Assembly (NCBI GenBank): GCA_048882505.1
Contig: JBHLRO010000006.1
Location: 30,001 to 62,000 of the forward strand
Direction of reading: 5' to 3'
Source of the DNA: Candidatus Thorarchaeota archaeon
GTDB taxonomy: Archaea; Asgardarchaeota; Heimdallarchaeia; Hodarchaeales; Hodarchaeaceae
DNA length: 32,000 nucleotides
In this document: one piece after another, positions 12,205-31,530 of the stretch
How positions within the stretch are numbered: the first letter of the stretch is position 1
Layout: each line of letters begins with the position of its first letter
Notes under the pieces: generated by a model
The model's database searches: none
Seen by the model: the letters and a program-made list of their open reading frames with translations, nothing else
What the model was told of the DNA's origin: nothing
Made by a program: the position numbers and the translations under genes

Positions 12205-12538
12205 CCTAATCGGCCCTCTGATTTGGCTTATGACATGTGGACTTCATGTGCACCCGATTTTAGATTTTCCCGCTCTTCGGTGAATAAGACAACATTTGTT
12301 TCCTATCATCACAAGATCGGAGACCGCACCTTTCTGAACTAGTTAGCAGTACCCATAAGGCTTTATAAAACCATTCTTGTTGGAAGATAATGCTTGGATT
12401 CGCTAATGATTTTTCGCATTCCAGGCGAATAGTTTAAGCCTCACGACTCAAAATACTCCAGATGGTGTCAGAGGAAGTTCTTTATCAGGGTTGAGGTATC
12501 TTCGAGGTGCCGTGGGTGAAGAACGGAGAGTGTTGGGT

Positions 12539-14443
12539 ATGATTAAGAGAGAGTTACTGGGCAGCTTCCTACTGATCATGTTGACTCTCTTTTGGATTCA
12601 TTCCCCCTTCTTACTTGGAGACACTCAGGAAGGTCGGATTTTTCGAGATTACGAATGGTACTACGAGAATTTTACCACGGAGGATCGCAAGAAAATCCGC
12701 CAAGCATTCGATTACTCGATTCCTCGAGTTCAAATCATCGAGGATCTCCTGCAAGGTATTGGGCAGGCCGTTGCGACACCCCTGTTGGCAAATCAATTGG
12801 GATATAACTCAACCATTGTGCCCAGGGATTTGAATAAGACAAAAGCCTTAGATCTTATGGAAGAGGTCTTTGGTTTCCGGTTCAATGATTCGGTGGAAGA
12901 CCCCGAAGATGACGACAGGTATTTTCAAATGGTCCTCATTACGTTGGCTACACGCCAAGATCGGATTAAATGGGCGGCTAGTATTACGGAGGCACTTGGA
13001 GAAATCGGGGTAGAAATTTTTCTTAAATACGGGAATCGGAACGTTTTCGAACCCCGTGTTTTAGATCCAGATCCTGAAGTAGCCGGAAAAGACTATGCCC
13101 ATGGCGGGATGGATGGGTATTTCATGGGCTGGGAAGTTAACTCCGATCCCGACCTTACACCTTGGTTTTTAAAGGCCGCTCAGGCACCAAACGGGCAAAA
13201 TGCCCACTACATCGAGGATACTACCATAGAAGAGATCCTCAACCGAACATTGAGCAACCGTGACCCCCAAAAACGCTTAGATGCCCTCCAAGAATTCCAA
13301 CAATGGTTTTTCAACGAGAGTCCATTCTATATGGTACGCGAAGGGATGAACATTATCGCTTCTGATCCGGCCCTGAGAGGCGTTGACATAAGTGGGCAGT
13401 TGTATCCCAACTACGGCAACTGGAGCCATGCCAACCAAACCACTGTGACTGTCCATTCCCTGGGAAGGTTCATCGATATAAACCCCATTGTGTCCATTTC
13501 GTATTTTGATAAACTTGCTACAGCTGGGGTCTTTGAAGGGCTCCTCGGTCGGTTCCCCGGGAAAGAGGAGCCTTGGCATGGGATCCTCGCAAAAAGGTGG
13601 ACGCACAGCCCTGATGACTTGGTCTGGGAGGTATCGATTAAGGAGGGTATTCAATTCTCCAATGGGGCCAATTTAACTGTAGATGACGTGGTTTTTTCCT
13701 ATCAGCGAGTACTTGATCCTGATGTAGGATCAGCACTCCGTGGAGCGTTCACTTTCTTCAATGAAGATGCCGTGGAAAAAATCAATGCCACGGCCGCACG
13801 GTTCACGTTTAACGGGTTCTGGCCCTATGCAGAAAATTACTTGAGTCGTGTTCCGATCGTTTCCGAGGCAGAAATGAGCCAATTGAGCGATACTGGATGG
13901 GATTATGATTATATCAATTCGGAAAAGGCGCCCATAGGATCAGGACCATACAAAATAGACCCCTCTTATCTTTCAGCTCAGGAAGTTCATCTTGTCAAAA
14001 ACCTTTACTACAACGCGACCTTACGGGGACACAATCCAGAAAATGGAATCTGGTACCCAAACCCTTCGATCGACACTATTGTGGTCAAATTCTACGATAA
14101 ATTAACCACCGCAATCGGGGATCTCCAAAACGATACAGTGGACATCATTGATCCACACACATTTCTTGTCCCTTACTTGGACACCATTAATGGCAGTAGT
14201 TGGGCGAAACTGAGTCTTACCCCTGCTTATGAATTCGAAGCCCTTTTTCTTAATCATTACAGTCCCATTTGGGGATTAAATCCCGCAGATCCGTGTGAGA
14301 TGTATCCTGGATATTGTGATGATTACCCGTTTGATAGTCCGTTAATTGAGTCTTTCAATGCTTTATTAACGGGGGTACTTGTTATTTTGCTCGTTAGCTA
14401 TTTCGTTCTCGGGCTTTTTATGGTCAAAAAGCGCAGATCTTAG
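12539..14443 (+). CDS. ABC solute-binding protein, family 5 (Opp/Dpp/Nik-like), apparently circularly permuted, with C-terminal TM anchor
   Basis: Start moved to ATG 12539 (MIKRELL..., signal peptide follows). Family-5 motifs RQAFDY, LAKRW, EGIQFSNGANLTVDDVVFS and PIGSGPY are present but in swapped order. C-terminal TM plus KKRRS; many sequons. Confidence 0.85.
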   Translation: MIKRELLGSFLLIMLTLFWIHSPFLLGDTQEGRIFRDYEWYYENFTTEDRKKIRQAFDYSIPRVQIIEDLLQGIGQAVATPLLANQLGYNSTIVPRDLNKTKALDLMEEVFGFRFNDSVEDPEDDDRYFQMVLITLATRQDRIKWAASITEALGEIGVEIFLKYGNRNVFEPRVLDPDPEVAGKDYAHGGMDGYFMGWEVNSDPDLTPWFLKAAQAPNGQNAHYIEDTTIEEILNRTLSNRDPQKRLDALQEFQQWFFNESPFYMVREGMNIIASDPALRGVDISGQLYPNYGNWSHANQTTVTVHSLGRFIDINPIVSISYFDKLATAGVFEGLLGRFPGKEEPWHGILAKRWTHSPDDLVWEVSIKEGIQFSNGANLTVDDVVFSYQRVLDPDVGSALRGAFTFFNEDAVEKINATAARFTFNGFWPYAENYLSRVPIVSEAEMSQLSDTGWDYDYINSEKAPIGSGPYKIDPSYLSAQEVHLVKNLYYNATLRGHNPENGIWYPNPSIDTIVVKFYDKLTTAIGDLQNDTVDIIDPHTFLVPYLDTINGSSWAKLSLTPAYEFEALFLNHYSPIWGLNPADPCEMYPGYCDDYPFDSPLIESFNALLTGVLVILLVSYFVLGLFMVKKRRS

Positions 14444-17407: not shown

Positions 17408-18037
17408 TTGGTAAAGGTTTTTGAAGGAGGAGAACCCCTCAAAATTGAACAGGTGGAAGAGCTGAACATAGACGAAATAATCCTCAAGATCTGCTCTATC
17501 GGTGATTACCAGGTGGGTAAAACCAGTCTTATTCACAGATATGCAGAGAATGTATTCAGTGAAGATTATTTACCTACCTTGGGGGTTGATATTACTACGA
17601 AACGTATTATTGTAGATGATACACCGATTAAATTGATTTTAATGGACACAGCAGGACAGGAACAGTTCGGTCGTATTCGTCGGTCGTATTTCCTAGGATG
17701 TGCAGGTTGTCTGATTGTCTACGATGTTACAAGGCGCGATTCTTTTGAATCTCTGGAACGATGGGTCAGAGAGTTTCGTTCCGGACAACAACGAGAGAAC
17801 AAGCCCATTGCGATTATAGGGAATAAGAACGATCTTAAGCAGGAGCGTCAGGTCGGGCGGCAGGAAGGGGAATCGTTTGCCAAGGTCATGGCAAATGTCT
17901 CCTTTTACGAATGTTCGGCGAAACTAGGGGGTCCTGAAATCCCCAGAATTTATGAAAATATTTCTCGTCAATACCTCAAATCGGTTCAATCGGGGCGGAA
18001 TAGGGGGGACAAGGAACCGACTATGGTAACCCGATGA
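17408..18037 (+). CDS. Rab-like small GTPase
   Basis: G1 GDYQVGKTS, G2 PTLG, G3 DTAGQE, G4 NKND, G5 CSAK; RabF-like LGVDI, YFLG and LIVYDVT; TTG start. Confidence 0.92.
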   Translation: MVKVFEGGEPLKIEQVEELNIDEIILKICSIGDYQVGKTSLIHRYAENVFSEDYLPTLGVDITTKRIIVDDTPIKLILMDTAGQEQFGRIRRSYFLGCAGCLIVYDVTRRDSFESLERWVREFRSGQQRENKPIAIIGNKNDLKQERQVGRQEGESFAKVMANVSFYECSAKLGGPEIPRIYENISRQYLKSVQSGRNRGDKEPTMVTR

Positions 18038-18369
18038 GACCATCGATTTCAAAGGCGGAGACTCCACGTACTACCAGCATTTTTTCGGCCGCTACACCGA
18101 GATCAGGATTGGATGGTTTCTATCACGGTTATCCGTAAAGCTACTCCCCTCTTGATTCGTTAGTTTTTATCAAATCCGCTTAAATTACCTGATTGGTTTG
18201 TTTGCTTGGAAGATGAGCAAAGCGGCTTTGGAATTGGATCGACATTCAAGGGCGTCCTGCACAGAGAGCATCCAACAAAGCTCGGTTGCTCAAAGAATTC
18301 ATCTTATGTCCTCTGCCAAGAGTACGTTGACTTTCCCCCTTAATCGATGTATCTGATCATTGAGAAATA

Positions 18370-18813
18370 TTAAGATAATTTTCTGACCTTCTTAAGAATT
18401 AAGACAAGAATAAAGGCCGTCAAACCTGAAATAAATCCGATTAAAATGATCGGTAAGTAGGATTGTGCCAATTTGGTGTAATAGATTCCAAAAATATATG
18501 GGGAAGTCGAATCGTACAGAGAACCGACCATTTCGCCTGCAATAAGCCAACCTACTGTAATTAATGCGAATAATATCACAGGCCACAAGACTGCGGAAAA
18601 TATCGAGTGAACTATACTACCATTATTGATAGAAAATGAATTCCCACTGAGACTTTCAATAGTAATTGAGTCTGCAAGACTCCAAACTGATACCGACGGT
18701 TGCGCGAGGATGAAAAAATATAATATGCCGAGTAAGTACCATATCACAATCCATAAAGGCAATACAAAACCAATAGGTCGGTATTTTATCGAAATATCTC
18801 TCTTCTCATGCAT
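18370..18813 (-). CDS. Small hypothetical membrane protein (about 3 TM)
   Basis: Hydrophobic segments and a basic C-terminus; motif similarity to 14604-14975. Confidence 0.7.
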   Translation of the reverse strand: MHEKRDISIKYRPIGFVLPLWIVIWYLLGILYFFILAQPSVSVWSLADSITIESLSGNSFSINNGSIVHSIFSAVLWPVILFALITVGWLIAGEMVGSLYDSTSPYIFGIYYTKLAQSYLPIILIGFISGLTAFILVLILKKVRKLS

Positions 18814-19160
18814 CTTGAACCCTTGAGGTAATTAACAAAAAACGGATATTTAAAGCATCCGCAAGTGTTCTTGGGCTCCCAAAGGGACTCCCTTTGAAAT
18901 CCTTGAGCTACATCTGATTTTGGAGTTTTGAACAGCTACATGTGTCCAATACGTGCAATTATGATTCAATAGTTTCCATTAGACCAATATGTCTATCCTT
19001 ACTGTGTTCAAAACATATTAGAAGGAAAATAGCTTCAATTGGGGGAAAGAAATGGACAAAGAGGGATTCCATGCCTTTTTACTTACTGGGATGAAATTGC
19101 TCCCCTCTGCATTGTTTTATTTGAGAATCTTAAAAAAATTGGACAATAAAACTAAACTAG

Positions 19161-20048
19161 ATGAGCAGGATGACCACTCCAAGTGGAATTTATAGCGTGA
19201 TGATATACAGCCTAGAATCACGTCGCATTCTCATTCATCGAATATATTCTCGGGATGAATCTGTGGTTAATAATCTAGACACGCTTTATTCAACCATTGT
19301 GTCCTTTAAAGGTGAAAACGAGGGGAAAGAAGATGTGTCAACGTTTCCAATGAAAACTAGAAAAATCTTAATTACTTCCGCTGAAAACTTAATCTTCATG
19401 ATTGTGGTTGCACCCCATTATGGAACTATCGAAGCGGAAAAAATCCTATCTCATATCAGGGCATCATTTTTCCGTAAATATCCTCTTGGTGATTGCAACT
19501 GGCATTTTGATGAACACATGAACTATCTCGTGGGATTTAAAGCCGTCATAGATGAGATAGTGGAACACTTCGGCGACCCAAAGACCATAGTAAAAATCGT
19601 GCTGATGGGAATAGACTACGCGGGCAAAACGACGTTAACACATGCTTACGCGGGGAGTAATTATCGAGATTATCTCCCTACAATGGGACTGGACATTCTA
19701 AGAATAGAATACAAGAATAAACACATTCGTTTATGGGATCTTGGCGGGCAAATGCTGTTTAGAAGCTTATGGCCTAAGTTTGCGAATGAAGCATCTGGAA
19801 TAATTTTTGTCGTTGATTCAGCCACAACCCGGTGGAGCGAAACCAAAGAAGTATTTGAAATCTCTCTGCTGTTTAAATTACCCTATATCATATTTGCTAA
19901 CAAACAGGATATAGTAAAACGAGCACAAAGCATTAACTTCATTGCGGAGAGGTTACAAGTTCCTGAAGAAAAAATAGTAAAAGGGAGTGCTTTATTGAAC
20001 AAAGGGATCTATGAAGTCTTAGATGGGTTACTGGATGAAATTGGTTGA
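19161..20048 (+). CDS. Longin-domain / Arf-like small GTPase fusion
   Basis: C-terminal GIDYAGKTT, PTMG, WDLGGQ, FRSLW, GIIFVVDS and FANKQD are Arf-type. The N-terminal ~135 aa have the longin pattern: beta hairpin, helix, three strands, then EAEKILSHIRASFFRKY. Confidence 0.8.
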   Translation: MSRMTTPSGIYSVMIYSLESRRILIHRIYSRDESVVNNLDTLYSTIVSFKGENEGKEDVSTFPMKTRKILITSAENLIFMIVVAPHYGTIEAEKILSHIRASFFRKYPLGDCNWHFDEHMNYLVGFKAVIDEIVEHFGDPKTIVKIVLMGIDYAGKTTLTHAYAGSNYRDYLPTMGLDILRIEYKNKHIRLWDLGGQMLFRSLWPKFANEASGIIFVVDSATTRWSETKEVFEISLLFKLPYIIFANKQDIVKRAQSINFIAERLQVPEEKIVKGSALLNKGIYEVLDGLLDEIG

Positions 20049-20111
20049 GCACTTAATTGTCTAAATCAAAGAGGAAGTGAATGTTTTTAGCCATTAAAGG
20101 AAGGTCTAAGA

Positions 20112-21845
20112 ATGATGGAAACATCAGAAGTGGCTACGATTGAGAAATTGCAGGAAAAGCTCAAATTCCGTCGAAAAGTTGAAAGGGCGATTGGGGATAT
20201 TTCGACTTATCTTGTTTTTTCAAGTAGTTTCAACCTGTCCATCGAATATTTCCTCTCCGAAATCGCAGAACTATACCATTTCTATTTTGTAGATGGGGCA
20301 GCTGTTTGTTTATTTGATGAACCTTCTAATGACCAAATTTCGGTACTTGGATGGAATTCAGAAAAAAATATAGATAATCGTGTAAATCTTAAGGAATTTC
20401 CGATTGGAAATTTCATCTGGTTCCAAAACCAGATCAAAGCAGGGCGCGAACTTGTTCTCACTGAAACTTATGAATTCTCGAATGAGGCCCAACCAGAAAA
20501 AGCCTTTTTTAGTGAACATACTATCAAATCCCTCATCGCAATCCCTATCTTCACTCCTGAATATATTGCGGGTACATTTGTGCTGGTTAGCCTATCCAAC
20601 CAGGTGTGGCAGGAGGAAGATCTTCGTACCCTTAGATTGTTCGCTGAACTTTTGGGTACAGCAATCTTTCGAAAAAAAACGGAGGAGACGCTTTCAAAGG
20701 CGAGAGACTATTTAAAGGCTCAAATTGACCGAAAAACTGAGGATTTAAGCACTGAAAAGCAAAGAATCGAATTGATCCTGAATACAATAAAGGATGGAGT
20801 CATCGTACTTGATCAAGATGGGAAGGTGACCATGGCTAATGAAACCTCAAAGCGATTTTTTAATCTGATTATGGATTTGCCGCTGATTATAGGCGTTAAC
20901 CTAGTTTTAAGCACTGGAAATACGTTTTTTAGAACCATAAGAGGTCTCTTTTTGTCGTTTTTTAAAAACGAAGTGACAATTGAACCTAAAAAGGGACTCC
21001 ATCTTCAAATTGCCTCGGCTCGGGGAAAATATCCTGCCCTTCATACCTCCGGCATGATAATTGAGCTTCGAGACGTTACAGCGTTTATAGAGTTTGACAA
21101 TATGCGAAAGCGATTCGTTTCTACCGTGAGTCATGAACTTCGAACCCCGATTACGGTTATTAATCAGTCCATCAATAATTATGAGAAATATGGAAATAAA
21201 CTGCCAGAAAAGACCAAAACGAAATTATTCTCTGCAATCGCACGGAATTCCCGACTGCTTTATGAACTGGTGGAGGACCTACTTTTGATTTCTAAAATAG
21301 ATGAACGAAGGATCGATGAGAGAGGATTTGAGCTCCATTGGCAGGACTACGATATAAAACAGATTATAGATGAAGTCACAACGCAATTAGAGCCCAGGGC
21401 CAAGGCCAAGGATATTAATATCCTTAAATCGGGTTTTGTGAAAGCGCCTATGTTTGGGGACCCGAATCGTGTTGCTCAGATATTTCGTGCATTAATTGAT
21501 AATGCCATCAAATATTCTGGCAGTTCAAGTATAATTAGGATTACAGGAAAGGATGATTATACGGGAAAATACAATACGCAGGGAATAAATGGAATTCTTG
21601 TTAAAGTTATCGATTCGGGGATTGGAATAGACGGGGAGGATCTACCAAAAGTATTTAATAGATTTTTTCGGGCCAAAAGTGTAAGTCACATATCGGGAAC
21701 AGGATTAGGGTTAGGTATTGCTCGTGATCTTGTGAAGATGCATAAAGGGGAATTGTTTGTTGAAAGTGCCTTAGGAAAGGGAACTATTACGCTTGTGTTT
21801 TTGCCTAGAATCACCGAGGCCGAGTTAAGACCTGAAGAGAGCTAA
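20112..21845 (+). CDS. Cytoplasmic sensor histidine kinase: GAF + PAS + HisKA + HATPase
   Basis: IKSLIAIPI...GTFVL (GAF); KDGVIVLDQDGKVTMAN (PAS); SHELRTP H-box; N box DNAIKY; G1 DSGIGI; F box FNRFF; G2 GTGLGL. No TM segment. Confidence 0.93.
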   Translation: MMETSEVATIEKLQEKLKFRRKVERAIGDISTYLVFSSSFNLSIEYFLSEIAELYHFYFVDGAAVCLFDEPSNDQISVLGWNSEKNIDNRVNLKEFPIGNFIWFQNQIKAGRELVLTETYEFSNEAQPEKAFFSEHTIKSLIAIPIFTPEYIAGTFVLVSLSNQVWQEEDLRTLRLFAELLGTAIFRKKTEETLSKARDYLKAQIDRKTEDLSTEKQRIELILNTIKDGVIVLDQDGKVTMANETSKRFFNLIMDLPLIIGVNLVLSTGNTFFRTIRGLFLSFFKNEVTIEPKKGLHLQIASARGKYPALHTSGMIIELRDVTAFIEFDNMRKRFVSTVSHELRTPITVINQSINNYEKYGNKLPEKTKTKLFSAIARNSRLLYELVEDLLLISKIDERRIDERGFELHWQDYDIKQIIDEVTTQLEPRAKAKDINILKSGFVKAPMFGDPNRVAQIFRALIDNAIKYSGSSSIIRITGKDDYTGKYNTQGINGILVKVIDSGIGIDGEDLPKVFNRFFRAKSVSHISGTGLGLGIARDLVKMHKGELFVESALGKGTITLVFLPRITEAELRPEES

Positions 21846-21918
21846 AAGATTTGAGTTTTGATAGCTTTTTAAGAACGGAAAGGAGAAGTCAAGTGAGTAG
21901 AGTACGGAGGCCCGAAGG

Positions 21919-22299
21919 ATTTCAGACTTAATTATGGTCGTAGAAGACAATCCTGATGTTTTGTTTAATCTAGTGGTAACGCTTGAAGCTAATGGATATG
22001 AAGCAGAAGTTGCCACAAATGGTAAGGAAGCCACAAGAGTTCTGTTGAAAAAAGATCCCGAATCACTACCAAGTCTAATAATCAGTGATATTATGATGCC
22101 GGAAATGGACGGGTACGAATTCTACCAATTTTTACAGGGGGATCAAGCATACAAGCATATACCCCTAATCTTTCTCTCCGCCCTCGCGACACCAGATGAT
22201 ATTCGCTTTGCGGAAATATTGGGTGCCAAAGATTACATAACAAAACCATATAATGAAGAAAAGTTGCTTACCTTGATTAGAGAGAAACTGGACGGGTAA
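21919..22299 (+). CDS. Single-domain response regulator (receiver)
   Basis: VVEDN, SDIMMPEMDG, FLSA and KPY motifs. The first ATG is at 21934; an in-frame ATT at 21919 behind GGAGG is my proposed start. Confidence 0.9.
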   Translation: MSDLIMVVEDNPDVLFNLVVTLEANGYEAEVATNGKEATRVLLKKDPESLPSLIISDIMMPEMDGYEFYQFLQGDQAYKHIPLIFLSALATPDDIRFAEILGAKDYITKPYNEEKLLTLIREKLDG

Positions 22300-22306
22300 G
22301 TGATCC

Positions 22307-23719
22307 TCAAAATTCATAGAGGCCCCAACTGGCCGAGACTGTTCTCGGTTGTTGATCCACATGGATTCGTATGATTCTAGAGAACCCGAAAACGTTTCCT
22401 AGACCTGTTAATAACCCTTCGATAACCCCTATAATTAGAAGTGAGCTTCCTTCTCGTGGTATCTCGATGTCTACCTGCATTCCACCAGCAATATTACTTA
22501 TTTCCACCCCAATTAGCTGATGAACTGGTTTATCCAGCATTTTACCTATATTTCCAGATAACCAATCCCTGAAGATATTGTTTGCCAGACTTTCGCCATA
22601 AGGAACGGAGAGCGCCTTAATTTTTTTCCAAAACTCTTTCGAGTCCGATTCAGGAGCTAGCTCTCCAGATAGGGTTTTCCATACGTGGTTCTGAGTCTCA
22701 AAGAATATCGAACTTCTTAAAACATTGATCAATAGATCTTGGGGAATCATTCGGGCTAGAATTCGCATGAAGGCCAAGTAAAGAGAATCATCCAAGATGG
22801 AAGAAAGGAATACAGAATAACGGGGCCAGATAAACAGACCTTTAAAAGCCTTTAAGAAGTCTAAGAGATTGGGTTGGAGCTCGCTCACCTTGTTAGGATC
22901 ATACTTATGAGCTAATAATCCGATGAAGGGCGATTCCTTCATTGCTTTGAGAACATTCATAATATCGGTTAGGTAAATGTACGCCTCTTCGAATTCGGCT
23001 GGGTTTTGGATATCAACCATGAAAATTAATGCTGTTAGGTTTTTCCACTTAAATTCGTCATAAACATGTTTTTTTACGTATTCCGTCTGTCCGCCTAAAT
23101 CAAAAATGGTTAATTCAGTTTTTAAAACGTCTATGAACGAATTAAAAATAGAATAATCGACAGTTGGTCTGATCCTATCCAACTGTTCTTTGTTCCAGGA
23201 ATCAAAAAATCCACGAATGGCTGTGGTCTTTCCTGCTTTTCTTAATCCTGCAACAACTATTTTAGGAAGTTTCCTCCTGGGTTTCTGAGAGGGAGGTGCG
23301 GGCAATTTGAATTCATGCGTAAACCATTCATCGAAAAACGAGTCAACTTTCTCTGTAACCTCAGGTGTAATGAAATCCAACTCTTGGTCTTTGAATCGCT
23401 CTTCAATACTATTCCCCAGATTTTCAATTATCGGATAGAGATCGTCCGAACTAGTACCTAGTGGAGTCATGACTGAGACCAGTACAGAAGCGAACCTTTT
23501 TACATGTAGTTGGGAATTTGAAAAAACAAGCTCCTGAATGTCATCTTTCACGATTTCCTTAGAGAACTGAATTAATGCCGAAAGAAATCCCGATATTAGC
23601 TGACTGTCATGGTCCAGAAAGAACGAGGGTTCAAAGTTTTTTTGATAAAGCTCTATCCCTGTGTCAATGTTTATGACTGAAATCCGTTTAATGGAAGATT
23701 GAGAAGGATCTGACGTCGT
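22307..23719 (-). CDS. Longin + Rag/Gtr-like small GTPase + V4R/Bet3-like three-domain protein
   Basis: The frame stays open upstream of GTG 23551 to a stop at 23774-23776 and encodes IKRISVINIDTG...DSQLISGFLSALIQFSKEI (longin). GTPase motifs: GLRKAGKTT, RPTVD, DLGGQ, HKYD, SSILDDSLYLAF...IP (Rag-type). The start codon is uncertain. Confidence 0.75.
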   Translation of the reverse strand, partial: TTSDPSQSSIKRISVINIDTGIELYQKNFEPSFFLDHDSQLISGFLSALIQFSKEIVKDDIQELVFSNSQLHVKRFASVLVSVMTPLGTSSDDLYPIIENLGNSIEERFKDQELDFITPEVTEKVDSFFDEWFTHEFKLPAPPSQKPRRKLPKIVVAGLRKAGKTTAIRGFFDSWNKEQLDRIRPTVDYSIFNSFIDVLKTELTIFDLGGQTEYVKKHVYDEFKWKNLTALIFMVDIQNPAEFEEAYIYLTDIMNVLKAMKESPFIGLLAHKYDPNKVSELQPNLLDFLKAFKGLFIWPRYSVFLSSILDDSLYLAFMRILARMIPQDLLINVLRSSIFFETQNHVWKTLSGELAPESDSKEFWKKIKALSVPYGESLANNIFRDWLSGNIGKMLDKPVHQLIGVEISNIAGGMQVDIEIPREGSSLLIIGVIEGLLTGLGNVFGFSRIIRIHVDQQPRTVSASWGLYEF

Positions 23720-24032
23720 TGATTTCGCTCCAGTCTGCGAAGATTGAGGATTACAACTTACGTTATGAATACTTTAGTCGAGAAATATCCCGTACAATGT
23801 ATTTCCGAACTGGAATACTATGATGTTCATGTGACCGATTCTCCTTAAGGGTGAAGGAAATTCGTCTGATGCACTGAAACTTGTCAAACCATATTTATTA
23901 ACTTAGTCATATTTATCGATTTCAGAAATTCTCTAGCAGGTTTTCAAATGTTCACTAAAAGCAAAATGTTTTGAAGAAGTATTGATATGATAAAGAAAGC
24001 ATAAGTGAACGATCCCCATTGGAGTGAAGTAA

Positions 24033-24752
24033 ATGGGAAAAGACAACAACGGTCAGGAATACGAATCGTTTTATGATCTTTGGGAACGTATAAAAAGCGA
24101 AGAATTAACTATTTTACCAGAAGAATCCAAAACCCATATTGAAGAGAATTTATTCCTTGATGAACAAGGAGGGGAGTATTTTATGAAGATTGTATTAGCA
24201 GGGGATGGTGCCGTTGGAAAAACTTCCTTAAGACGAAGTTTTTTAGGCGAGGATTTTTCATTTGACTACCAAACGACAATCGGAGCCGATTTTGCCACCC
24301 ATCGGGAACAAATAGCCAATCGATCCGTGAAATTTGTAATTTGGGATCTGGCAGGCCAACCCCAGTTTCATCAGGTAAGAAAAACGTTCTATTCCGGGGC
24401 ACACGGAGCACTTGTTGTATGTGATTTAACCAATCCCACCTCGTTCGAAAACCTGAAGCACTGGATAAATGAACTATGGCGATACAATGCGGAAGGGCCC
24501 GTGCCCTTTGTCATTGTGGGAAACAAATGCGATCTTAGGGATTTGGGATATGCAAGAATTTCTGATAAAAAGATTCATTCTGTTACAAAAATCATTAATG
24601 AAGAAACCTCACGGAAAAGTGGGTTTGGCGTCAAATCCATTACCACAAGTGCACGAACGGGGGAAGGAGTAATAGAAGCGTTCAAGCAGTTAGCTGTCCA
24701 AATTATTGCACATCGTAACTACATCAGGAGAAAGCGTCAAAAACCCGAGTAA
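24033..24752 (+). CDS. Rab-like small GTPase with acidic N-terminal extension
   Basis: G1 GDGAVGKTS, G2 TTIG, G3 WDLAGQ, G4 NKCD, G5 TSA; RabF-like IGADF, KFVIW, FYSGA and LVVCDLT. Confidence 0.93.
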   Translation: MGKDNNGQEYESFYDLWERIKSEELTILPEESKTHIEENLFLDEQGGEYFMKIVLAGDGAVGKTSLRRSFLGEDFSFDYQTTIGADFATHREQIANRSVKFVIWDLAGQPQFHQVRKTFYSGAHGALVVCDLTNPTSFENLKHWINELWRYNAEGPVPFVIVGNKCDLRDLGYARISDKKIHSVTKIINEETSRKSGFGVKSITTSARTGEGVIEAFKQLAVQIIAHRNYIRRKRQKPE

Positions 24753-24847
24753 CCTGCGCGTAACTAATGGACGAATTTCAGATGGTAATTCTGTTTAAGA
24801 AAAATTGCTGTCCATGGTAGAAAAGACTTCTACGAAACGTTCCGCAG

Positions 24848-25747
24848 CTAGCGTAAATTAGAGGAGGTAGTTGATAGAATTTTGACAAAATTATCCCAGT
24901 TCAGATTCTCAGAGAACTGGTTTCCGTGCTTATAGTCTGTTGCCATCTTTTCAAATTCCTCCTTTATTCTGAGGGACGCGAGATAGTTAATTTTCTGAGC
25001 TAGAAGGACGATCATAAATTGGCGTTTGCCCCCTCTAACTTCTGGATCTTCAATCGTATCAAAGTAAATATAGCCGTCTCGGTCGATGTTTGCGATTCGT
25101 AATAAAACCCCTTGTGGCTCATAATAATCCAGCTGGCCGTAGACTGAGACCGCGGTTTGAAACAGCTGGGTGCCAAGCTGGCGTAAGTCAAACTTAGTGT
25201 TGGAATCTGATGGAAAGATATCTCTTACTTTGGGACCATAAGCTTCATCCCATATCACATTAAAGAGTATAACTTCTCCTCTTTCACTTGGGGTCATTGA
25301 AGAACCGAGCTCATTTCGCAAGGATGTAAGCAGGTTTTTTTCGATTTGTTTACCCAGTTCTTTGTTTTTTATACTCCGCTGGATCTTTCCGGCAATTGAT
25401 GATAACAAATCCTTGTCGTTGAAGGGTTTGGTGATATAATCATCTACTCCAAGTATTTTGCCAAAACGTACATCCTCAGGAGATGCTTTCGCTGTAAGAA
25501 AGATAAAAGGGATAAAACTCCACGCCGGGTTATCAGAAACACGGCTGAAAAATTCGTATCCGTCCATTTCCGGCATCATGATGTCACAGAGGAAGAGGTC
25601 TGGGGGTTCATCGAGTTCAGATAACATGTTGAAGGCTTCGATGCCATTTTTTGCGCCTATCGGCCTGTATCCATTGAATTCCAACAATAATTCCAGGTTG
25701 TAGAGGATTTTAGCATTATCTTCAATGATAAATATTGTAGGTTTCAT
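24848..25747 (-). CDS. Response regulator with C-terminal uDENN/longin-like output domain
   Basis: Complete receiver domain (EDN, D55 in CDIMMP, LTA, KPF). Residues ~157-290 carry VIWDEAYGP and TIEDPEVRGGKRQFMIV, resembling the two folliculin/SMCR8 uDENN signatures. Confidence 0.8.
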   Translation of the reverse strand: MKPTIFIIEDNAKILYNLELLLEFNGYRPIGAKNGIEAFNMLSELDEPPDLFLCDIMMPEMDGYEFFSRVSDNPAWSFIPFIFLTAKASPEDVRFGKILGVDDYITKPFNDKDLLSSIAGKIQRSIKNKELGKQIEKNLLTSLRNELGSSMTPSERGEVILFNVIWDEAYGPKVRDIFPSDSNTKFDLRQLGTQLFQTAVSVYGQLDYYEPQGVLLRIANIDRDGYIYFDTIEDPEVRGGKRQFMIVLLAQKINYLASLRIKEEFEKMATDYKHGNQFSENLNWDNFVKILSTTSSNLR

Positions 25748-25799
25748 TTAATTACCCTGAATTGTCTCTAGATCACAGTTAAGTCGAGTTTTTCTTCCC

Positions 25800-27878
25800 C
25801 TAATTGACCAATACGGGGAGAAAAACTGAAAAAGTTGATCCTTTGCCTAATTCGCTGTCCACGAAGACTTCCCCGTTTTGAATTGCTGCTAATTCCTTTG
25901 CGATCGATAATCCCAGCCCGGTTCCAGGCACATCCTTCACATTGCTTGCTCTGAAAAAGCGATCAAATATATAGGGCATGTCCCTTTCACTTATGCCGAT
26001 TCCAGCATCATTAACTTGAATTAATAGACCATCAAGTTTTTTCGGGTTGTATTTCCCCTGATAATCAGTTATAGCCCCAATCGTAACAGTCGTTCTTTCA
26101 GCAGAGTATTTAATGGCATTATCCATTAGGATGCGTAACATTTGGCCAAGTCTTTTCGAATCTCCCACTATTTCAACTGCAGGAGGTATATTGGTGCTAA
26201 TTGTGATATTCTTTACCAGTCGTGCGGGCTCTAATTGGATTAATACTTCGCTTATAATGTCCCAAAGCGCATATGTGCTTACATCCAGCTTCAATTCACC
26301 GCTCTCTATTCTGGATACGATCAAAAGATCTTCTATCATTTGATTCAGAACAGTAGAACTCTCTGCAACCATATCAACAATACTATCAATCTGTGCCGCT
26401 GATAACTGGTCGCGGTAGTTCTGTAAATTCCTAATTGAGAGGTCAATCGCGGTAATTGGAGTTCTGAGTTCATGAGACACCATTGAGATAAATTGCTCTC
26501 TGAGTCGATCCAGTTCCACCAGAGAAGTCACATCGCGGACTGTGATTACAATGCCAATAGGAGGGTTTGGTGGATTTAATACCATAGAGGAGGTAAGCTG
26601 AAGGAAAAGCCCTGGGTGAGGCTCGATGGTTTTGTATTCCTTCTTTTGAGAAAAAAATGCCTTGGCAATCGCCTCGCCAAATGGATGTCCGATACTGGGG
26701 ATATCGCGGAGGAGTGGAGGTAACTCCTTGTTATAAATCCTCTTGTAGAATTTCTTGAATATTTCATTAACATAATAAACTCGGCCTTCAGTGTTAAAAA
26801 CAACGACCCCATCAGGGATGGTTTCCACAATCCTCTCAATTCGCTGTTTTTCTTCCGTTAAGTTTTGTGTGGCTATTTCGACTTTTCGTGCCAAGGAATC
26901 TTTGGTTCGTTTTAACGCTTCTTCAGCCATCTTCCGCTTGGTGATGTCTTCAAAACTGCCTTCATAGTATAATACCGACCCCTGTTCATCTTTTATTGCT
27001 TTCGCATTCTCCCGGATAAAGACCGTGGAGCCATCCAGTCTCTTAAGCTTCTGTTCAAACCCTCTAATCTCGTCTGCTCTCTCGATCAATTCCCGAAAAT
27101 CTTGTCTCGGATAGTCCATCTTGGTCGATAACTCATTCATATTAATGGCACGCATTTCTTCCAATGAGGAAAACCCCATCATTCGTATGAATTCGGCATT
27201 TGCTGCAAGTAGCTTTCCGCCTGGTGTCATTCGATAAAGTCCGATGGGCATACCTTCAAATAACGTGCGATACCTTTTTTCGCTTTGTTTAAGCGCTTCC
27301 TCCATTGATTGACGCTCAATGAGTTGATCTCGGAGTTTATTAACTAATTGCCTTCTTTCTTTCTCCAGATGCAGCCTCTCAAGGGTATCCCGGATCTTAA
27401 TTAGCACATCCTGGACATCAAAGGGTTTAACTATGTAAGCTGATGCCCCCATGTTTAGGGCACCGATTGCTGATTCCTGTGACGCATATCCCGTTATGAT
27501 CATCATCACAAGATCTGGTTGCAATTCCTTCATCACTTTTAACAAGCGAATGCCATCAAGATCAGGTAATCTAATGTCTAAAAGGGCAATATCGTATATT
27601 CTTTCTTTCAGCTTATCCATAGCATCTTTCCCAGTATATGCGGAATTCGCAATATATCCGGCTTTCTTAAAAATTAGTTTTAGTAAACTACATGTATTAT
27701 CATCATCATCATCTACGATCAGAATTCTCCCTGTGATCTTATTGTAAGTACGTTGAATAGTTCGGGCAGATTCATCTAGAATGGATTTGTCAAGTTCTTT
27801 AAGGTTTTCTGCGTTATTTAGAAGTAATGAGAAATCCTTTGGCGAATTCGTGTTTTGATGTTCCCTGTTATTTTCCAT
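25800..27878 (-). CDS. Hybrid sensor histidine kinase: REC + PAS + PAS + HisKA + HATPase
   Basis: RILIVDDD / LLDIRLPD / KPF receiver; PIGLYR...AAN and PDGVVVFN PAS domains; SHELRTP, DNAIKY, DAGIGI, FDRFF and GTGLGL. No TM segment. Confidence 0.93.
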   Translation of the reverse strand: MENNREHQNTNSPKDFSLLLNNAENLKELDKSILDESARTIQRTYNKITGRILIVDDDDDNTCSLLKLIFKKAGYIANSAYTGKDAMDKLKERIYDIALLDIRLPDLDGIRLLKVMKELQPDLVMMIITGYASQESAIGALNMGASAYIVKPFDVQDVLIKIRDTLERLHLEKERRQLVNKLRDQLIERQSMEEALKQSEKRYRTLFEGMPIGLYRMTPGGKLLAANAEFIRMMGFSSLEEMRAINMNELSTKMDYPRQDFRELIERADEIRGFEQKLKRLDGSTVFIRENAKAIKDEQGSVLYYEGSFEDITKRKMAEEALKRTKDSLARKVEIATQNLTEEKQRIERIVETIPDGVVVFNTEGRVYYVNEIFKKFYKRIYNKELPPLLRDIPSIGHPFGEAIAKAFFSQKKEYKTIEPHPGLFLQLTSSMVLNPPNPPIGIVITVRDVTSLVELDRLREQFISMVSHELRTPITAIDLSIRNLQNYRDQLSAAQIDSIVDMVAESSTVLNQMIEDLLIVSRIESGELKLDVSTYALWDIISEVLIQLEPARLVKNITISTNIPPAVEIVGDSKRLGQMLRILMDNAIKYSAERTTVTIGAITDYQGKYNPKKLDGLLIQVNDAGIGISERDMPYIFDRFFRASNVKDVPGTGLGLSIAKELAAIQNGEVFVDSELGKGSTFSVFLPVLVN

Positions 27879-27895
27879 ATAGTTTCCTTCTTAGG

Positions 27896-28297
27896 TCAAC
27901 CGTAGTGTTCTATTCCTTCAGCTTTCACCGTTTGCCAAAGTTCCCTAAAGAACTTAGAATCACTTGCGCAGTATAGACGGTATATTTTTCCGTCATCAAA
28001 GGATTTAAGGAAAAACGAGTGGCCCGACGTGATTCGCAAAAATCGTAGCCAGAACTGATGTAGAATCTTCTGAATGGGATTTGTTTGCCCATGAAATCCA
28101 ATTGAGAATCTCGAGGTATTTCGTGGAACAAGAATTAAGCCATTAGATTCAATTTTAAAAGATTCAAACAAGTATAATGAGAAAAGGATAAGAATTAGGG
28201 GTATCCGTTGGCGATAAATTGTTCTTTCATTTCTATTAACTACCATGGCAACTTTGCTCCAGAAGTAGTTGTTACGGAAAAAAATGGAGAAATGCAT
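27896..28297 (-). CDS. Hypothetical protein (doubtful; may be degraded)
   Basis: 133-aa ORF with one hydrophobic segment and no recognisable motif; an overlapping ORF in another frame hints at a frameshifted remnant. Confidence 0.3.
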   Translation of the reverse strand: MHFSIFFRNNYFWSKVAMVVNRNERTIYRQRIPLILILFSLYLFESFKIESNGLILVPRNTSRFSIGFHGQTNPIQKILHQFWLRFLRITSGHSFFLKSFDDGKIYRLYCASDSKFFRELWQTVKAEGIEHYG

Positions 28298-28323
28298 GCT
28301 TTGACTTTAAACATGCATCATCT

Positions 28324-28473
28324 TCACTTTGGAGGTGGGGGGGAAATTGGATCAGCTATTCCAAGAGTTACTGCCAGTAAGAGTAACGTGAACCATAAGG
28401 CTGTTACCAAGAGCTTAACGAGGAACGTACTGGATAGCACTGATGGTGTTCGAATATTGGTCCTTAGTTGCAT
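28324..28473 (-). CDS. Putative small secreted peptide precursor, 49 aa
   Basis: Manual translation: MQLRTNIRTPSVLSSTFLVKLLVTALWFTLLLLAVTLGIADPISPPPPK*. Signal-like hydrophobic core ending GIA, then a short Pro-rich tail. No clear SD site. Confidence 0.45.
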   Translation of the reverse strand: MQLRTNIRTPSVLSSTFLVKLLVTALWFTLLLLAVTLGIADPISPPPPK

Positions 28474-28722
28474 AATCTACGGCACCAAGGAATATCTCCC
28501 GATTATCCCCTAATTAGTGGGGCATCAACATTTTCATGTATTTTTTTCCCAATAGGTATCATTATCCTCTTCTGATGCCTATATTTGCGAACTAGTGTAT
28601 TCCCTCAAGGATCGTTAGAAGATATAGTCGCTAGTTTGAGACTGAATGGTTATTTAAATGAAGTATCGATAATAGTACCTAGCCAGCAATAATGGCTTAA
28701 TATTTGCTAATTTTGAGTAAGA

Positions 28723-30168
28723 ATGATACATAGCAATTCCCAACAATCACCCGCAGTTCAACAAGTAGAACTATCGTTTATTAGTGATTTCACTAAATAT
28801 TGGGACAAAATTAGGGATTTCTGTTCTGTTGAAAGGAGTACAGTTCGTTCTGTGTGTGCTAAACTATTTGAGGATTGGACAAAACCTTTTTTCGAGAGGT
28901 GGTCAACAACAGAACTAATCAAACCTTACTTGGTTTGGCGAAGTAATTATGCTTCCCGATTTTCTTCCTTCGGTCTTCTGTATAATGGGAAAATGCTGCT
29001 TATACCTCACAAACTCGTTTCTAATATTCTGGACTCCCAGGTCAGGGAGCATGTGTACTTTAGGGAGTTTACAGACATTAAAACCTTCTTCTATTACCTA
29101 TGGCAAGTAACTCAGGTTCAACAGAATTTTCCTCTAAATGCAAGTGATCTGAAACTTATCAGTTTTTATACGAGTTCGGGTTTTATGAGAACTTCTGCGC
29201 GATTCCCCTCGCAAGAACTATTAGCCGACGTGCTTTCTTGTAACCCAAGAACCATTTCTACACGAAGTACGCGGTTGTACAACCACTACATCCTAACACA
29301 TACATATTTAATCGATGTTGCCAAACTGGGTTATCAAACCATGGCATTTCTCTCACAAGATCCTTCAGATATACACGGTTCTCTTACGAAATATTGCCTT
29401 GGAACCCTTCCGATTGACTTAGGATTAACTCGGGGAAATCTAAAGATTTTTCAAATTCCGTATTGGAAACATGATGTTTTTAACGCCGTTACTGATAGTT
29501 TAGGCCCTGTTGCGGGATATAATTTAACCCAATTATCCATCAGTTGGAACCTCAGCCAGTTATCGACAAACCCAGACTCAAGATGGTTAAACGAACCACC
29601 AGTTCTCGTTGGAATCGCCTGGGATGATACAGACATCATTCTGGAGGATATTGGGGTCGATCTTAATTTGGTTCCAGATATCCAACAGAGTCCAGGAATC
29701 TCGAAATCACAAGCCAAACTATTGTCCTTTTACTATTCCCACGGCACAGTTCAAGATAAACAACTATCAGAATTCCTTGAATTAGACCCTCATAGTGTTT
29801 TTCGCCTTTGGCAAGACATTTTGGATAGAAACGTGGCGTACCCGTATACACACGTCAGCAATATAGGTTTAGATTTGTCTCTGTGGGTGATGCTTCTCGG
29901 AAAAACGAAGCAAGACAATTCGGATCTCGTTTCAAAAGTCGTTGCTCACCTTCGCTATTTCCCATATGCACGGACATTCTATTCCTCAGGGAATTCGAAC
30001 GAGGGTACGTTTTTGGTTGCAGAGATTAGAATTCCGTCACTTTGGTATAAGGATTTTGCTACGCATTGGGACAACCTTACTAATTACGAATTAATCCCCA
30101 AAGTGGGCGTATTAACACCCGAATTTCACTTGAAACGAAATATAAATGTTTTAGACACTCTTTTTTAG
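28723..30168 (+). CDS. Transcriptional regulator with two tandem Lrp/AsnC-like (wHTH + RAM) units
   Basis: PSQELLADVLSCNPRTISTRSTRL...IDVAKLGY and QDKQLSEFLELDPHSVFRLWQDIL...VSNIGL each fit the Lrp HTH-linker pattern. Confidence 0.7.
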   Translation: MIHSNSQQSPAVQQVELSFISDFTKYWDKIRDFCSVERSTVRSVCAKLFEDWTKPFFERWSTTELIKPYLVWRSNYASRFSSFGLLYNGKMLLIPHKLVSNILDSQVREHVYFREFTDIKTFFYYLWQVTQVQQNFPLNASDLKLISFYTSSGFMRTSARFPSQELLADVLSCNPRTISTRSTRLYNHYILTHTYLIDVAKLGYQTMAFLSQDPSDIHGSLTKYCLGTLPIDLGLTRGNLKIFQIPYWKHDVFNAVTDSLGPVAGYNLTQLSISWNLSQLSTNPDSRWLNEPPVLVGIAWDDTDIILEDIGVDLNLVPDIQQSPGISKSQAKLLSFYYSHGTVQDKQLSEFLELDPHSVFRLWQDILDRNVAYPYTHVSNIGLDLSLWVMLLGKTKQDNSDLVSKVVAHLRYFPYARTFYSSGNSNEGTFLVAEIRIPSLWYKDFATHWDNLTNYELIPKVGVLTPEFHLKRNINVLDTLF

Positions 30169-30345
30169 CCATTCATTTTAAATTAGATTTCCGAAATTTC
30201 CTAAAAGGTCATCGCGAACTTTTCGGAACCGCTTCTTGATAAGGCTGAGGCGGTAATCTTTGTCGGATTAAAGGCAAAACCATCGTATGGTGGTTTTGAT
30301 CGGAGGTGACAAGGAACGTGATGGATCCTTGGCCGTTCGATTGGG

Positions 30346-31530
30346 TCATAATGCCGAATACACGGGGACAACTGGGAACGTTTCGCGAACTATTCGATTT
30401 AAGGTTTCTGACTCTTCAGTAGAGGAATCCATCTCTGGAAAAGTTTTATATAATGACGCAATACGATTGGTTAAGATATCTAGCGAGTTTTTAAGAGCTT
30501 TAGAAGTGGTAGAAGTGACTATAATATAGCTAAGATTCTGTTGACGGTTTATTAAAAGGACTGAATCCTCCAGATGTAGTTCATGAAGACCTGAGGCAAG
30601 AGCGTCAACTACTGCTTTCATTCCTGGAAAAAAGGCATCTCGATTGTGATGGGGAACTGTGATCCAACTGTACGAAAAGAGTGGTTCCGTAGTGTCCGTG
30701 CGGATAATTACGAGTCGTGAGGAGTGAATGGGTAATACAAACAATAGTTTGGGTTCTGAGACAAAGGCAATCATGAAGAGAAAAGATCCAAACAAATGGG
30801 CTATTTCTATAAGTCCAATGTCTTGACCTACCAGTTGGGTAAACAGCATAATGAGAGCAAGAAGATACACAAACGCTCCTATCAATGCAATACTAGCCTT
30901 GTTCCTTATATCATCCGGTGCATTCAGGTAGAGAGTCCCCGTGTACAGAAGCAAGAGAAGGATTCGAAACCCCCAGAAGGAGAGCTGGATGTAATTTAGA
31001 AACACTGACACCGTCCTGGCCTCCACACCAGGAAGTAATGCGAAGACCACCATTCCAGTCGAGAGGATCGCGTATACGATTAGCTTAATGGGATCTAAGG
31101 ATGGCCGATGCGCGGAATCGACAAAGATAACCAAGAATATGGTAAATCCAGTCAAAATGAAAAATCCCGCAAAACCAAGAACATCTGCGAGGGTCATGGA
31201 TAATACTTCCCCCTTACTCGTTACTTTATACAGAGGAATCCCAATATCGGTCATTAGAACATTTATTGATAGGCTATTGGGATCAAAACCAAGTAAAAGA
31301 ATTTGTAATCCAAGTAACATAAACCAGGCAAACAAACCAGCAAAATCCAAGGAAAGCCACAAGAATTGCCTGTATTGCGTATCTATCCATCTTCTAAATC
31401 CAAAAACAAGGATTATGGAGATTATAAAGGCATGAAACAATGATATCAAGGAAATAAAGAGGAAATCTGCCATTACTTTCAAGTCCTCTGGCATAGTAAG
31501 GATAGATTGCCCTTCCTTGCCCCCCTCCAC
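30346..31530 (-). CDS. Seven-TM membrane protein with C-terminal longin-like domain
   Basis: Seven hydrophobic segments counted by eye, then EPKLLFVLP and a soluble ~125-aa domain (LVIIRTDTTEPLFSYSW...LHELHLEDSVLLIN...SYIIVT...LKNSLDIL...IVRETF). The true start may be ATG 31494. Confidence 0.75.
   Translation of the reverse strand: MEGGKEGQSILTMPEDLKVMADFLFISLISLFHAFIISIILVFGFRRWIDTQYRQFLWLSLDFAGLFAWFMLLGLQILLLGFDPNSLSINVLMTDIGIPLYKVTSKGEVLSMTLADVLGFAGFFILTGFTIFLVIFVDSAHRPSLDPIKLIVYAILSTGMVVFALLPGVEARTVSVFLNYIQLSFWGFRILLLLLYTGTLYLNAPDDIRNKASIALIGAFVYLLALIMLFTQLVGQDIGLIEIAHLFGSFLFMIAFVSEPKLLFVLPIHSSRLVIIRTDTTEPLFSYSWITVPHHNRDAFFPGMKAVVDALASGLHELHLEDSVLLINRQQNLSYIIVTSTTSKALKNSLDILTNRIASLYKTFPEMDSSTEESETLNRIVRETFPVVPVYSAL

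Follow-up and report, generated by a model that had tools for sequence, protein, structure and literature searches.

A two-component system encoded among small GTPases in a Hodarchaeales archaeon, with a receiver-longin regulator as a probable GTPase-activating protein for a Rag-like GTPase

Fusions of NPRL2-like longins to two-component domains were described in Asgard archaea by Liu et al. (bioRxiv 10.1101/2020.10.19.343400; later Nature 2021), who proposed that growth in these organisms is controlled via two-component systems with 'eukaryotic' regulators (10.1101/2020.10.19.343400). No GTPase partner was named in that work, and most genes for eukaryotic signature proteins were said to lack conserved neighbourhoods. 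A protein of the same kind is encoded in the stretch of DNA analysed here (the window), 32,000 nucleotides (nt) that make up positions 30001-62000 of contig JBHLRO010000006.1 (C6 of genome G000 in our numbering) in the 4.3 Mb, 83-contig assembly GCA_048882505.1 of a Candidatus Thorarchaeota archaeon of the Hodarchaeales; the closest database relatives of the window's proteins come from Hodarchaeales and other Asgard archaea. The protein, referred to below as the REC-longin regulator, joins a receiver (REC) domain to a longin, just as the published fusions join a receiver, or a kinase and a receiver, to a GATOR1/folliculin-like longin, and its gene lies in an island in which open reading frame (ORF) listing and Pfam searches found four small GTPases, two histidine kinases (HK1 and HK2) and two receiver proteins within about 10.5 kb. 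What is different from the account of Liu et al. is that gene neighbourhood, fusions and a tree now connect the regulator with a Rag-type GTPase, and that in Hodarchaeales it belongs to a duplicated cluster with several GTPases. It is suggested that the two-component system controls a small GTPase and that the regulator is probably a phosphorylation-controlled GTPase-activating protein (GAP) for the Rag-like GTPase of the island, a reading to which we assign a probability of about 0.55.

The eukaryotic proteins with which such a regulator has to be compared are the longin GAPs, namely FLCN-FNIP (acting on RagC/D), the NPRL2-NPRL3 pair of GATOR1 (RagA/B) and C9orf72-SMCR8 (Arf, Rab8/11). The regulator shares with them the longin fold, a GP motif, an arginine in a hairpin loop, a WD motif like that of C9orf72 and a likely Rag-type client, the last of these being predicted. 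It differs in having no DENN module, in holding in one chain the motifs that eukaryotes split over two subunits, and in its input, which is predicted to be phosphorylation of the receiver by a histidine kinase rather than lysosomal amino-acid sensing. Asgard longins of the FLCN/SMCR8 type, with a GP motif and an arginine finger, have already been described (Traffic 2025, PMC12290439); the present regulator has a GP motif and an arginine in the same structural places and likewise resembles FLCN, SMCR8 and NPRL2. That study makes no mention of receivers, kinases or gene context and leaves open whether ArfR or Rag GTPases are the partners, and on this point the data given below favour Rag-type GTPases as partners of the Asgard GP/Arg longins, with an Arf-type GTPase in one fusion.

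Rag-like G domains flanked by extra domains are also known from the longin-Rag-like-roadblock GTPases of Prometheoarchaeum MK-D1 and from Loki Rag-like proteins (PMC10933270; PDB entries 8yl2, 8zla/9m28), and the Rag-like protein of the window is built in this way too, except that neither of the models for Roadblock and V4R finds its C-domain. Tran et al. (PMC10933270) reported that the GTPases of MK-D1 are generally not in operons with roadblock or longin genes, and that the layout of Asgard genomes does not allow GTPases to be assigned to their regulators; the REC-longin family, in contrast, does sit with GTPase genes. A more distant parallel is the MglA-MglB system of Myxococcus with RomR, in which there are also a small GTPase, a regulator of the roadblock/longin class and a receiver-domain protein, but there MglB is a roadblock and not a GP/Arg longin, RomR is not fused to MglB, and the GTPase is of another family. 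A full-text literature search found no paper linking longins of the present kind to kinases and GTPases by neighbourhood.

Proteins related to the regulator over nearly its whole length, with identities of 45-63%, are encoded in Hodarchaeales, Heimdall, Loki (Promethearchaeota), Hel, Odin and Hermod assemblies, and residue conservation was read from 40 aligned members of six Asgard groups. In the receiver (Pfam Response_reg, E 3.6e-21) D55 and K107 are invariant and D10 nearly so, whilst the tail keeps W166, G171, P172 and R238 without exception and D167 in at least 90% of members. The AlphaFold2 model of the full-length protein (predicted local distance difference test score, pLDDT, 87.6) shows a confident receiver and a long linker helix (residues 111-145). 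As receiver domains dominated the fold matches of this model, the tail was folded and searched alone (pLDDT 84.2, predicted template modelling score 0.82). The tail model has the strand-strand-helix-strand-strand-strand-helix topology of a longin, with strands at 160-167, 171-178, 212-218, 223-233 and 241-250 and helices at 188-203 and 255-273; the WD and GP motifs stand before strand 2, and R238, encoded at 25034-25036, sits in the loop between strands 4 and 5.

In AFDB Swiss-Prot the best match to the tail model was the longin of SMCR8 (E 4.5e-7, 20% identity), followed within the top 30 by DENND6A, LST7, NPRL2, C9orf72, DENND11 and AVL9. VIA-align searches of the PDB returned longins matched over about 120-140 residues of the tail at Z 10-13, the best being 8yqg, the longin of a Lokiarchaeota roadblock-longin protein (Z 13.0, root-mean-square deviation 2.6, 129 residues), and the next Lst4 (11.8), C9orf72-SMCR8 (11.1), FLCN (10.6) and SMCR8 (10.2); Foldseek against the PDB gave DENND10, NPRL2, FNIP2 and FLCN (E 2e-4 to 8e-4). 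The profile of the family, run against all PDB sequences, matched only residues 29-159 of C9orf72, at an E value of 0.8 that is not significant by itself, and in this HMMER alignment the WD of the regulator falls on W33-D34 of C9orf72 and its GP on G38-P39. It has been reported that W33-D34 is essential for the GAP activity of C9orf72-SMCR8, that the GP motif is specific to GAP longins and absent from non-GAP longins, including the DENND proteins, and that a GP motif and an arginine finger are both present in Asgard longins (PMC12290439). The Pfam Folliculin model matches seven of the 40 members over the stretch with R238, with a best E of 0.0011, all seven falling below the curated cut-off. 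Arg164 of human FLCN probably lies in a loop of the same kind as that of R238. The regulator ends about 25 residues past the last long helix of the longin, the C-terminal module of DENN proteins or of NPRL2 being absent, and it shares only the longin with FLCN and DENN proteins and is not a full protein of either sort. The tail is, on its modelled fold, a longin of the folliculin/SMCR8/NPRL2/C9orf72 class (uDENN, GAP-class). An earlier note on this DNA, made from the sequence alone, had named the protein a receiver-uDENN fusion with an arginine finger, which holds at the level of fold class and motifs, with the arginine as a putative finger.

The distribution of the tail domain was followed with a six-frame profile search of 201 sampled Asgard genomes, 48 of which contain it, including 9/9 sampled genomes of the window's genus and 34 of the 40 of family f13. 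Twenty-five loci of up to about 20 kb with 26 REC-longin genes were then set against 20 control stretches from the same genomes; the loci are kin and the counts carry no P value. In 20/26 cases the REC-longin gene has a histidine kinase gene at most 500 nt away, which it directly follows. A small GTPase was found within 4 kb, again in 20 of the 26, whereas the control DNA held nine GTPases in 398 kb (one per 44 kb), no kinase and no receiver. Three arrangements recur: GTPase, kinase and regulator in the same direction at 12 loci, which come from several genera of f13 (L005 shows a variant); a GTPase adjoining the regulator directly (L039, L050, L051, L052); and multi-GTPase clusters (L001, L004, L042, L044 and the window). 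Of the six exceptions, five (L003, L006, L053, L054 and L056) have no GTPase anywhere in the DNA that was read around the regulator, and in L038 the distance to the nearest one is 7.4 kb. A search of 1.8 billion representatives with the tail-domain profile gave 306 clusters, and the best 150 of these 306 matches are all archaeal-type and mostly receiver fusions of about 295 residues. In some chains the components are joined outright: P0288 is a single-chain REC-Arf GTPase-longin protein, and P0178 and P0194 are PAS-HisKA-HATPase-REC-longin chains. Other architectures in which the tail longin occurs are longin-TPR (P0281) and DUF1638-longin (P0153). At the Loki-group locus L004:408-4095 (GCA_019058315.1) two KaiB-KaiC pairs stand directly upstream of kinases, a receiver-longin gene and five GTPases, which hints at a clock-like input to the module.

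The island itself recurs in relatives of the source organism. In a second genome of the genus (G181) orthologs of all seven core genes lie within 10.6 kb, with blocks inverted and reordered and only the HK1-REC1 pair keeping its arrangement; the identities are 59% for the Rag-like GTPase, 71% for the stand-alone receiver REC1, 57% for HK1, 59% for the Arf-like protein, 60% for Rab-like 2, 42% for HK2 and 54% for the regulator. Another genome (G127) carries a regulator, a Rag-like, a kinase and a Rab2-like gene that all point the same way. L001 has a kinase, two regulators in succession, a kinase, a Rab2-like gene, three Rag-like genes and an HK1-like kinase, and L044 also holds a related gene set. 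Among 22 genomes of the genus, an ortholog of the long Rag-like protein is present in five; regulators at least 50% identical to that of the window occur in four of those five and nowhere else in the genus, and the longin-Arf protein in three of the five, while Rab-like 1 and the 147-aa and 394-aa membrane proteins show no such link. In the Hodarchaeales version, then, the two-component system is duplicated and stays together, through rearrangements, with a long Rag-like protein of several domains, a longin-like Arf protein and a Rab-like GTPase. As regards the duplication, HK1 has HK2 as its best paralog and vice versa (E 1.5e-84, against about 1e-23 for the runner-up), and the same is true of REC1 and the receiver of the regulator (E 3e-32), which indicates that the two systems arose by local or recent duplication. 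L001 is the closest relative outside the genus; its tandem receiver-longin genes are 61% and 45% identical to that of the window, and a MazE/PIN pair lies inside its kinase cluster (L001:10001-11875 and 4186-4888).

The Rag-like protein has the motif H289-K290-x-D292 invariant in an alignment of 19 sequences, matches Pfam Gtr1_RagA (E 7.8e-18) and, among PDB sequences, matches the Asgard GTP-binding protein 8yl2 best, with Gtr2, Gtr1, RagA/C and Sar1 also found. Its homologs are 467-470 aa long and align end to end, and the gene is longer than the ORF listed earlier. The frame is open to 23773, with no ATG, GTG or TTG before a GTG at 23551 that as a start would halve the conserved N-domain, and an ACG codon (23716-23714, minus strand) occupies the position of the start methionine of all 18 aligned homologs. 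DNA identical to 23400-24000 is present in sediment metagenomes of two studies, and as contigs of two separate studies carry the same letters at the ACG this is not an assembly slip; translation may begin at a non-canonical codon, the product may be truncated, or the gene may have lost its start recently. The strongly conserved N- and C-domains gave no Pfam or PDB match beyond noise in profile searches. The C-domain had been labelled V4R in the earlier note, and this label found no support: the Pfam V4R model gives no match even at E up to 1, although it does match another gene of the genome (on C22, 542 aa), none of the 19 Rag-like homologs has a V4R match in Pfam, and their alignment has no conserved cysteine in the C-domain. 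Asgard TRAPPC3/V4R proteins have zinc-binding cysteines, and mouse TRAPPC3 is without the site (PMC10933270). The Roadblock (Robl_LC7) model does not match the C-domain either, Atlas features place it at 0.77 to unnamed clusters, which is uninformative, and in view of the published longin-Rag-like-roadblock architectures (PMC10933270) V4R remains an unsupported guess.

In the loci of other lineages the usual GTPase of the cassette is a bare G domain of about 183 aa that matches Pfam Arf and Gtr1_RagA and whose G4 motif is, like that of the Rag-like protein of the window, HKxDP of the Rag type. When 101 G domains were placed in a quick maximum-likelihood tree, a Rag-like clade had 99% support, and within it a subclade (support of 86 in the Shimodaira-Hasegawa-like approximate likelihood ratio test) which unites the Rag-like protein of the window, its orthologs and all the bare Rag-type cassette GTPases of about 183 aa. 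Only one other of the genome's 70 GTPases falls in that subclade.

That the regulator acts as a GAP for a Rag-type GTPase is suggested by its fold class, together with the GP, WD and Arg features of the only longins known as GAPs, by a conserved neighbour of the Rag type, which is the client class of FLCN and GATOR1, and by the fusions of receiver, GTPase and longin in one chain. HK2 would phosphorylate Asp55 of the regulator, the output of which would be a folliculin/SMCR8/NPRL2-class longin, most likely working as a GAP, with Arg238 inserted in the nucleotide pocket of the GTPase and aided by the WD and GP motifs. Since one chain has the motifs that C9orf72 and SMCR8 share, along with a long helical linker, phosphorylation may act through a homodimer, altering the dimer state or the accessibility of the longin via the linker helix. 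The most likely substrate would be the Rag-like GTPase of the island. HK1-REC1, as a recent paralog pair, probably feeds or drains the same phosphorelay, the Arf-like protein and Rab-like 2 would be lineage-specific additions kept in the cluster, and the Lrp-like protein may supply a transcriptional output. Domain make-up, motifs, fold class, gene neighbourhood, fusions and distribution among lineages are observed; that the activity is of the GAP and not the exchange-factor kind, which GTPase is the substrate and what phosphorylation does are inferred.

A number of observations weigh against this scheme. In the window a Rab-like gene separates the Rag-like gene from that of the regulator, and the genes do not form one operon; moreover, being without a canonical start at the conserved position, the Rag-like gene may be impaired in this organism. 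The subclade that joins the Rag-like protein of the window to the cassette GTPases is only moderately supported, and in a quick tree. The equation of R238 with R164 of FLCN and R147 of SMCR8 rests on its position in the loop, on a partial Pfam match and on the FLCN sequence. Six of the 26 REC-longin genes have no GTPase within 4 kb, that of the complete Heimdall-group genome L003 has neither a kinase nor a GTPase beside it, and many of the loci come from one family, so that the counts overstate their independence. Finally, exchange factors outnumber GAPs among longin platforms, and platforms of the longin and roadblock kinds are for the most part exchange factors or scaffolds (PMC10933270).

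It has to be asked whether the grouping has any functional meaning at all, given that abundant Asgard gene families could have come together by chance, functionally unlinked. The genome has 56 Pfam Ras matches, 13 receiver matches and about 20 HATPase matches, and our own G-domain profile found 70 GTPase ORFs; the internal order of the cluster is not conserved, and Rab-like 1 and the 147-aa and 394-aa membrane proteins have no conserved link to the island. Receivers, however, are rare, with three of the 13 genome-wide matches falling in the island, and of the 27 two-component ORFs of the genome just four have a GTPase within 5 kb, all of them in the window and none elsewhere. This is the sole place in the genome with four GTPases in 8 kb, and random placement yields such a cluster somewhere in only 1.7% of trials (P about 0.017). 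To this must be added that G181, G127 and L001 keep the same gene set together despite rearrangement, that GTPases beside REC-longin genes are far above control density and in several arrangements, and that fusion proteins exist. The gene cluster is real and not a random grouping; chance co-location is disfavoured and highly improbable. The earlier note had thus been right in seeing an integrated signalling cluster, in its list of Rab-like, Arf, HK1, REC, Rag-like, second Rab-like, receiver-plus-tail and hybrid HK2 genes, and in the co-orientation of Arf-like, HK1 and REC1 with gaps under about 90 nt; the synteny in related Asgard genomes that it proposed as a check was also found, with the full core in G181 and related sets in L001 and L044. 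It does not hold that the longin-Arf gene heads a kinase operon as a conserved arrangement, for in G181 it is divergent from HK1.

The mechanism put forward in the same note was another one, in which the longins fused to the Rag-like and Arf-like GTPases heterodimerise with the longin of the regulator and so deliver its arginine finger to the GTPase of their own chain. This has in its favour that eukaryotic longin GAPs are longin heterodimers (PMC12290439), that Asgard longin-Rag-like fusions are documented (PMC10933270; Liu et al.) and that the long Rag, the longin-Arf protein and the nearest orthologs of the REC-longin regulator are found together in a handful of genomes of the genus. One co-fold, of the long Rag-like protein (with GTP and Mg) and the regulator longin, gave 0.42 against 0.20 for the best control, which lends weak support to this idea and to the preferred reading alike; the mark is reached by 58 of 80 solved complexes and by two of 110 mismatched pairs, and at 0.60 or under are only seven of those 80 solved complexes and both of the passing mismatches. 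The runs agree in at least 62% of contacts, with a partner pLDDT of at least 73, but the weak co-fold came without a reported interface. Furthermore, the partner GTPase in most lineages is a bare G domain, so the regulator cannot generally depend on a GTPase-fused longin; the WD, GP and Arg features are already in one chain, so a homodimer would suffice; and the N-domains of the Rag-like and Arf-like proteins are not confirmed as longins. The idea is consequently unsupported in the form in which it was stated, and we regard it as unlikely. The prevalence of exchange factors and scaffolds among longin and roadblock platforms (PMC10933270) speaks for yet another possibility, namely that the regulator longin is an exchange factor, or a phosphorylation-dependent scaffold or effector platform, comparable to DENN, Mon1-Ccz1, TRAPP or Ragulator. 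The longins of DENND1A/B, Mon1-Ccz1 and TRAPP are also among the fold matches, and Liu et al. proposed exchange-factor roles for Asgard DENN modules. The top fold matches, on the other hand, are the GAP longins SMCR8, LST7, NPRL2 and FLCN, the GP motif is the one that non-GAP longins lack (PMC12290439), and the arginine is invariant; we regard such a role as rather improbable. A phosphorylation-controlled GAP for the Rag-like GTPase is accordingly the reading that we prefer.

The features of the island and its flanks are collected in Table 1. On the plus strand the gap from the Arf-like gene to HK1 is 63 nt and that from HK1 to REC1 is 88 nt, and on the minus strand the 133-aa gene, HK2 and the REC-longin gene follow in succession with gaps of 17 and 52 nt.

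Table 1. Coordinates of the genes of the island and its flanks, in window positions.
Feature	Position	Strand	Basis and remarks
Rab-like 1, Ras/Rab-like small GTPase	17408..18037	+	Pfam Ras E 2e-47; start codon uncertain
147-aa protein, three hydrophobic helices	18370..18813	-	Hydrophobic segments; only self-match in genome
Arf-like GTPase (residues 140-295) after 135-aa N-domain	19161..20048	+	Pfam Arf E 1.4e-28
HK1, cytoplasmic GAF-PAS-HisKA-HATPase kinase	20112..21845	+	Pfam
REC1, stand-alone receiver, 121 aa	21934..22299	+	Pfam Response_reg E 1e-23
Rag-like GTPase (HKYD), with N- and C-domains (about 120 and 145 aa)	22307..23716	-	Gtr1_RagA E 8e-18
Rab-like 2, Ras/Rab-like GTPase, 50-aa N-terminal extension	24033..24752	+	Pfam Ras E 2.6e-40
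REC-longin regulator: receiver, long linker helix, longin (residues 141-299)	24848..25747	-	Pfam, AlphaFold2 fold
HK2, cytoplasmic hybrid kinase REC-PAS-PAS-HisKA-HATPase	25800..27878	-	Pfam
133-aa protein, divergent from Lrp-like gene	27896..28297	-	ORF
481-aa Lrp/AsnC-type helix-turn-helix protein, probable transcription regulator	28723..30168	+	Atlas features, structure
Membrane protein of 394 aa with about 6-8 helices and a soluble tail (C-terminal, about 125 aa)	30346..31530	-	Hydropathy

The G domain of the Arf-like protein matches Pfam Arf over profile positions 5-173, with Arf1, Arl2 and Arl3 as its best PDB matches. The protein has no N-terminal amphipathic helix or myristoyl switch, as the 135-residue domain comes first and there is no Met-Gly start. 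This N-domain may be a longin, with a weak Pfam Longin match (E 0.18) and an Atlas lead of 0.77 to Asgard Fuz_longin_1/SRX clusters; its homologs occur only in two genomes of the same genus, and a region-limited homolog search returned only the protein itself. An all-against-all hhalign comparison of five domain alignments found no significant pair, the best being the Rag N-domain with the Arf N-domain at 6.5%, and as even the verified longin gave nothing against the others the comparison has little power here. Of the longin labels in the earlier note, then, that of the receiver-fused tail has stood, and those of the Arf and Rag N-domains are unconfirmed, with weak leads only, one more of which, for these domains and for the tail of the 394-aa protein, is the hydrophobic pattern. 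Rab-like 2 has orthologs, at 60% and 42% identity, inside the clusters of G181 and G127. The nearest paralog of Rab-like 1 is elsewhere in the genome (72% identity), and the lack of a Rab-like 1 ortholog in the related clusters makes its membership of the island doubtful.

The 481-aa protein, given as tandem Lrp in the earlier note, is Lrp/AsnC-like by Atlas features (0.93, 215 shared) and by structure (TM-score 0.64-0.69), the matches being to clusters most of whose members carry HTH_24/HTH_AsnC; Pfam gives HTH_36 only, at E 0.084. It has seven paralogs, and at three of five independent loci these lie within 5 kb of a receiver gene, while the sole paralog of the 133-aa gene likewise stands beside a paralog of the 481-aa gene. 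The loci are window 27896-30168, G000:C5:81928-84049, C13:10589-14125 and C14:65729-74177. As the pair recurs elsewhere, an unrelated repeated module made up of the 133-aa and 481-aa genes was considered; it was rejected on account of the receivers near the 481-aa paralogs, and the two may form a transcription module that recurs in connection with receivers. A protein 28% identical to the 481-aa one borders the G127 cluster, and it is possible that the protein is the transcriptional arm of the island. Neither the 147-aa nor the 133-aa protein has a Pfam or NCBIfam match. The 394-aa membrane protein has no family match and two paralogs in the genome; it had been called a 7TM-longin, and several hydrophobic helices and a soluble tail are confirmed for it, the longin in the tail being unconfirmed.

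Longins of the same type occur elsewhere in the genome. The region G000:C2:271180-288123 is a second neighbourhood of GTPases and regulators, with a Ras-like GTPase and three Roadblock/LC7 genes (273171, 273531, 280679). A longin of this type is found there in a 447-aa protein (281497-282837, E 9e-10), and the gene at 287185-288123 encodes the nearest paralog of the window's Arf-like protein. A 648-aa protein with the same folliculin-type longin (E 2.6e-12 to 5.6e-12) is encoded at G000:C12:90240-92183, and proteins of 635-653 aa with such a longin are present in most sampled genomes of the genus. Further upstream in the window, at 12491-14443, is a family-5 solute-binding protein whose Pfam match is limited to residues 365-593.

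The class of fusion to which the regulator belongs has already been published, and the window is to be seen as a lineage-specific elaboration and not as its first example. What the locus and its relatives offer is a regulator, a kinase and a candidate Rag-type client that are encoded together and in some organisms fused, so that two points left open in the literature (PMC10933270, PMC12290439) become testable with few proteins. A wider scenario can be put forward only tentatively, and we lean towards doubting it in full: a Rag GTPase and a folliculin/GATOR1-type longin GAP, the pair by which eukaryotes gate nutrient signalling, would already have formed one inherited module in Asgard archaea, a histidine kinase phosphorelay would toggle a homodimeric GAP, and the Hodarchaeales would have duplicated this module and wired it to Arf-like, Rab-like and Lrp-type proteins, so that a kinase-controlled network of several GTPases resulted. 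If the GAP activity and its control by phosphorylation are true, the pairing of Rag GTPases with longin GAPs predates eukaryotes, and as its input a prokaryotic phosphorelay would have been replaced by lysosomal amino-acid sensing.

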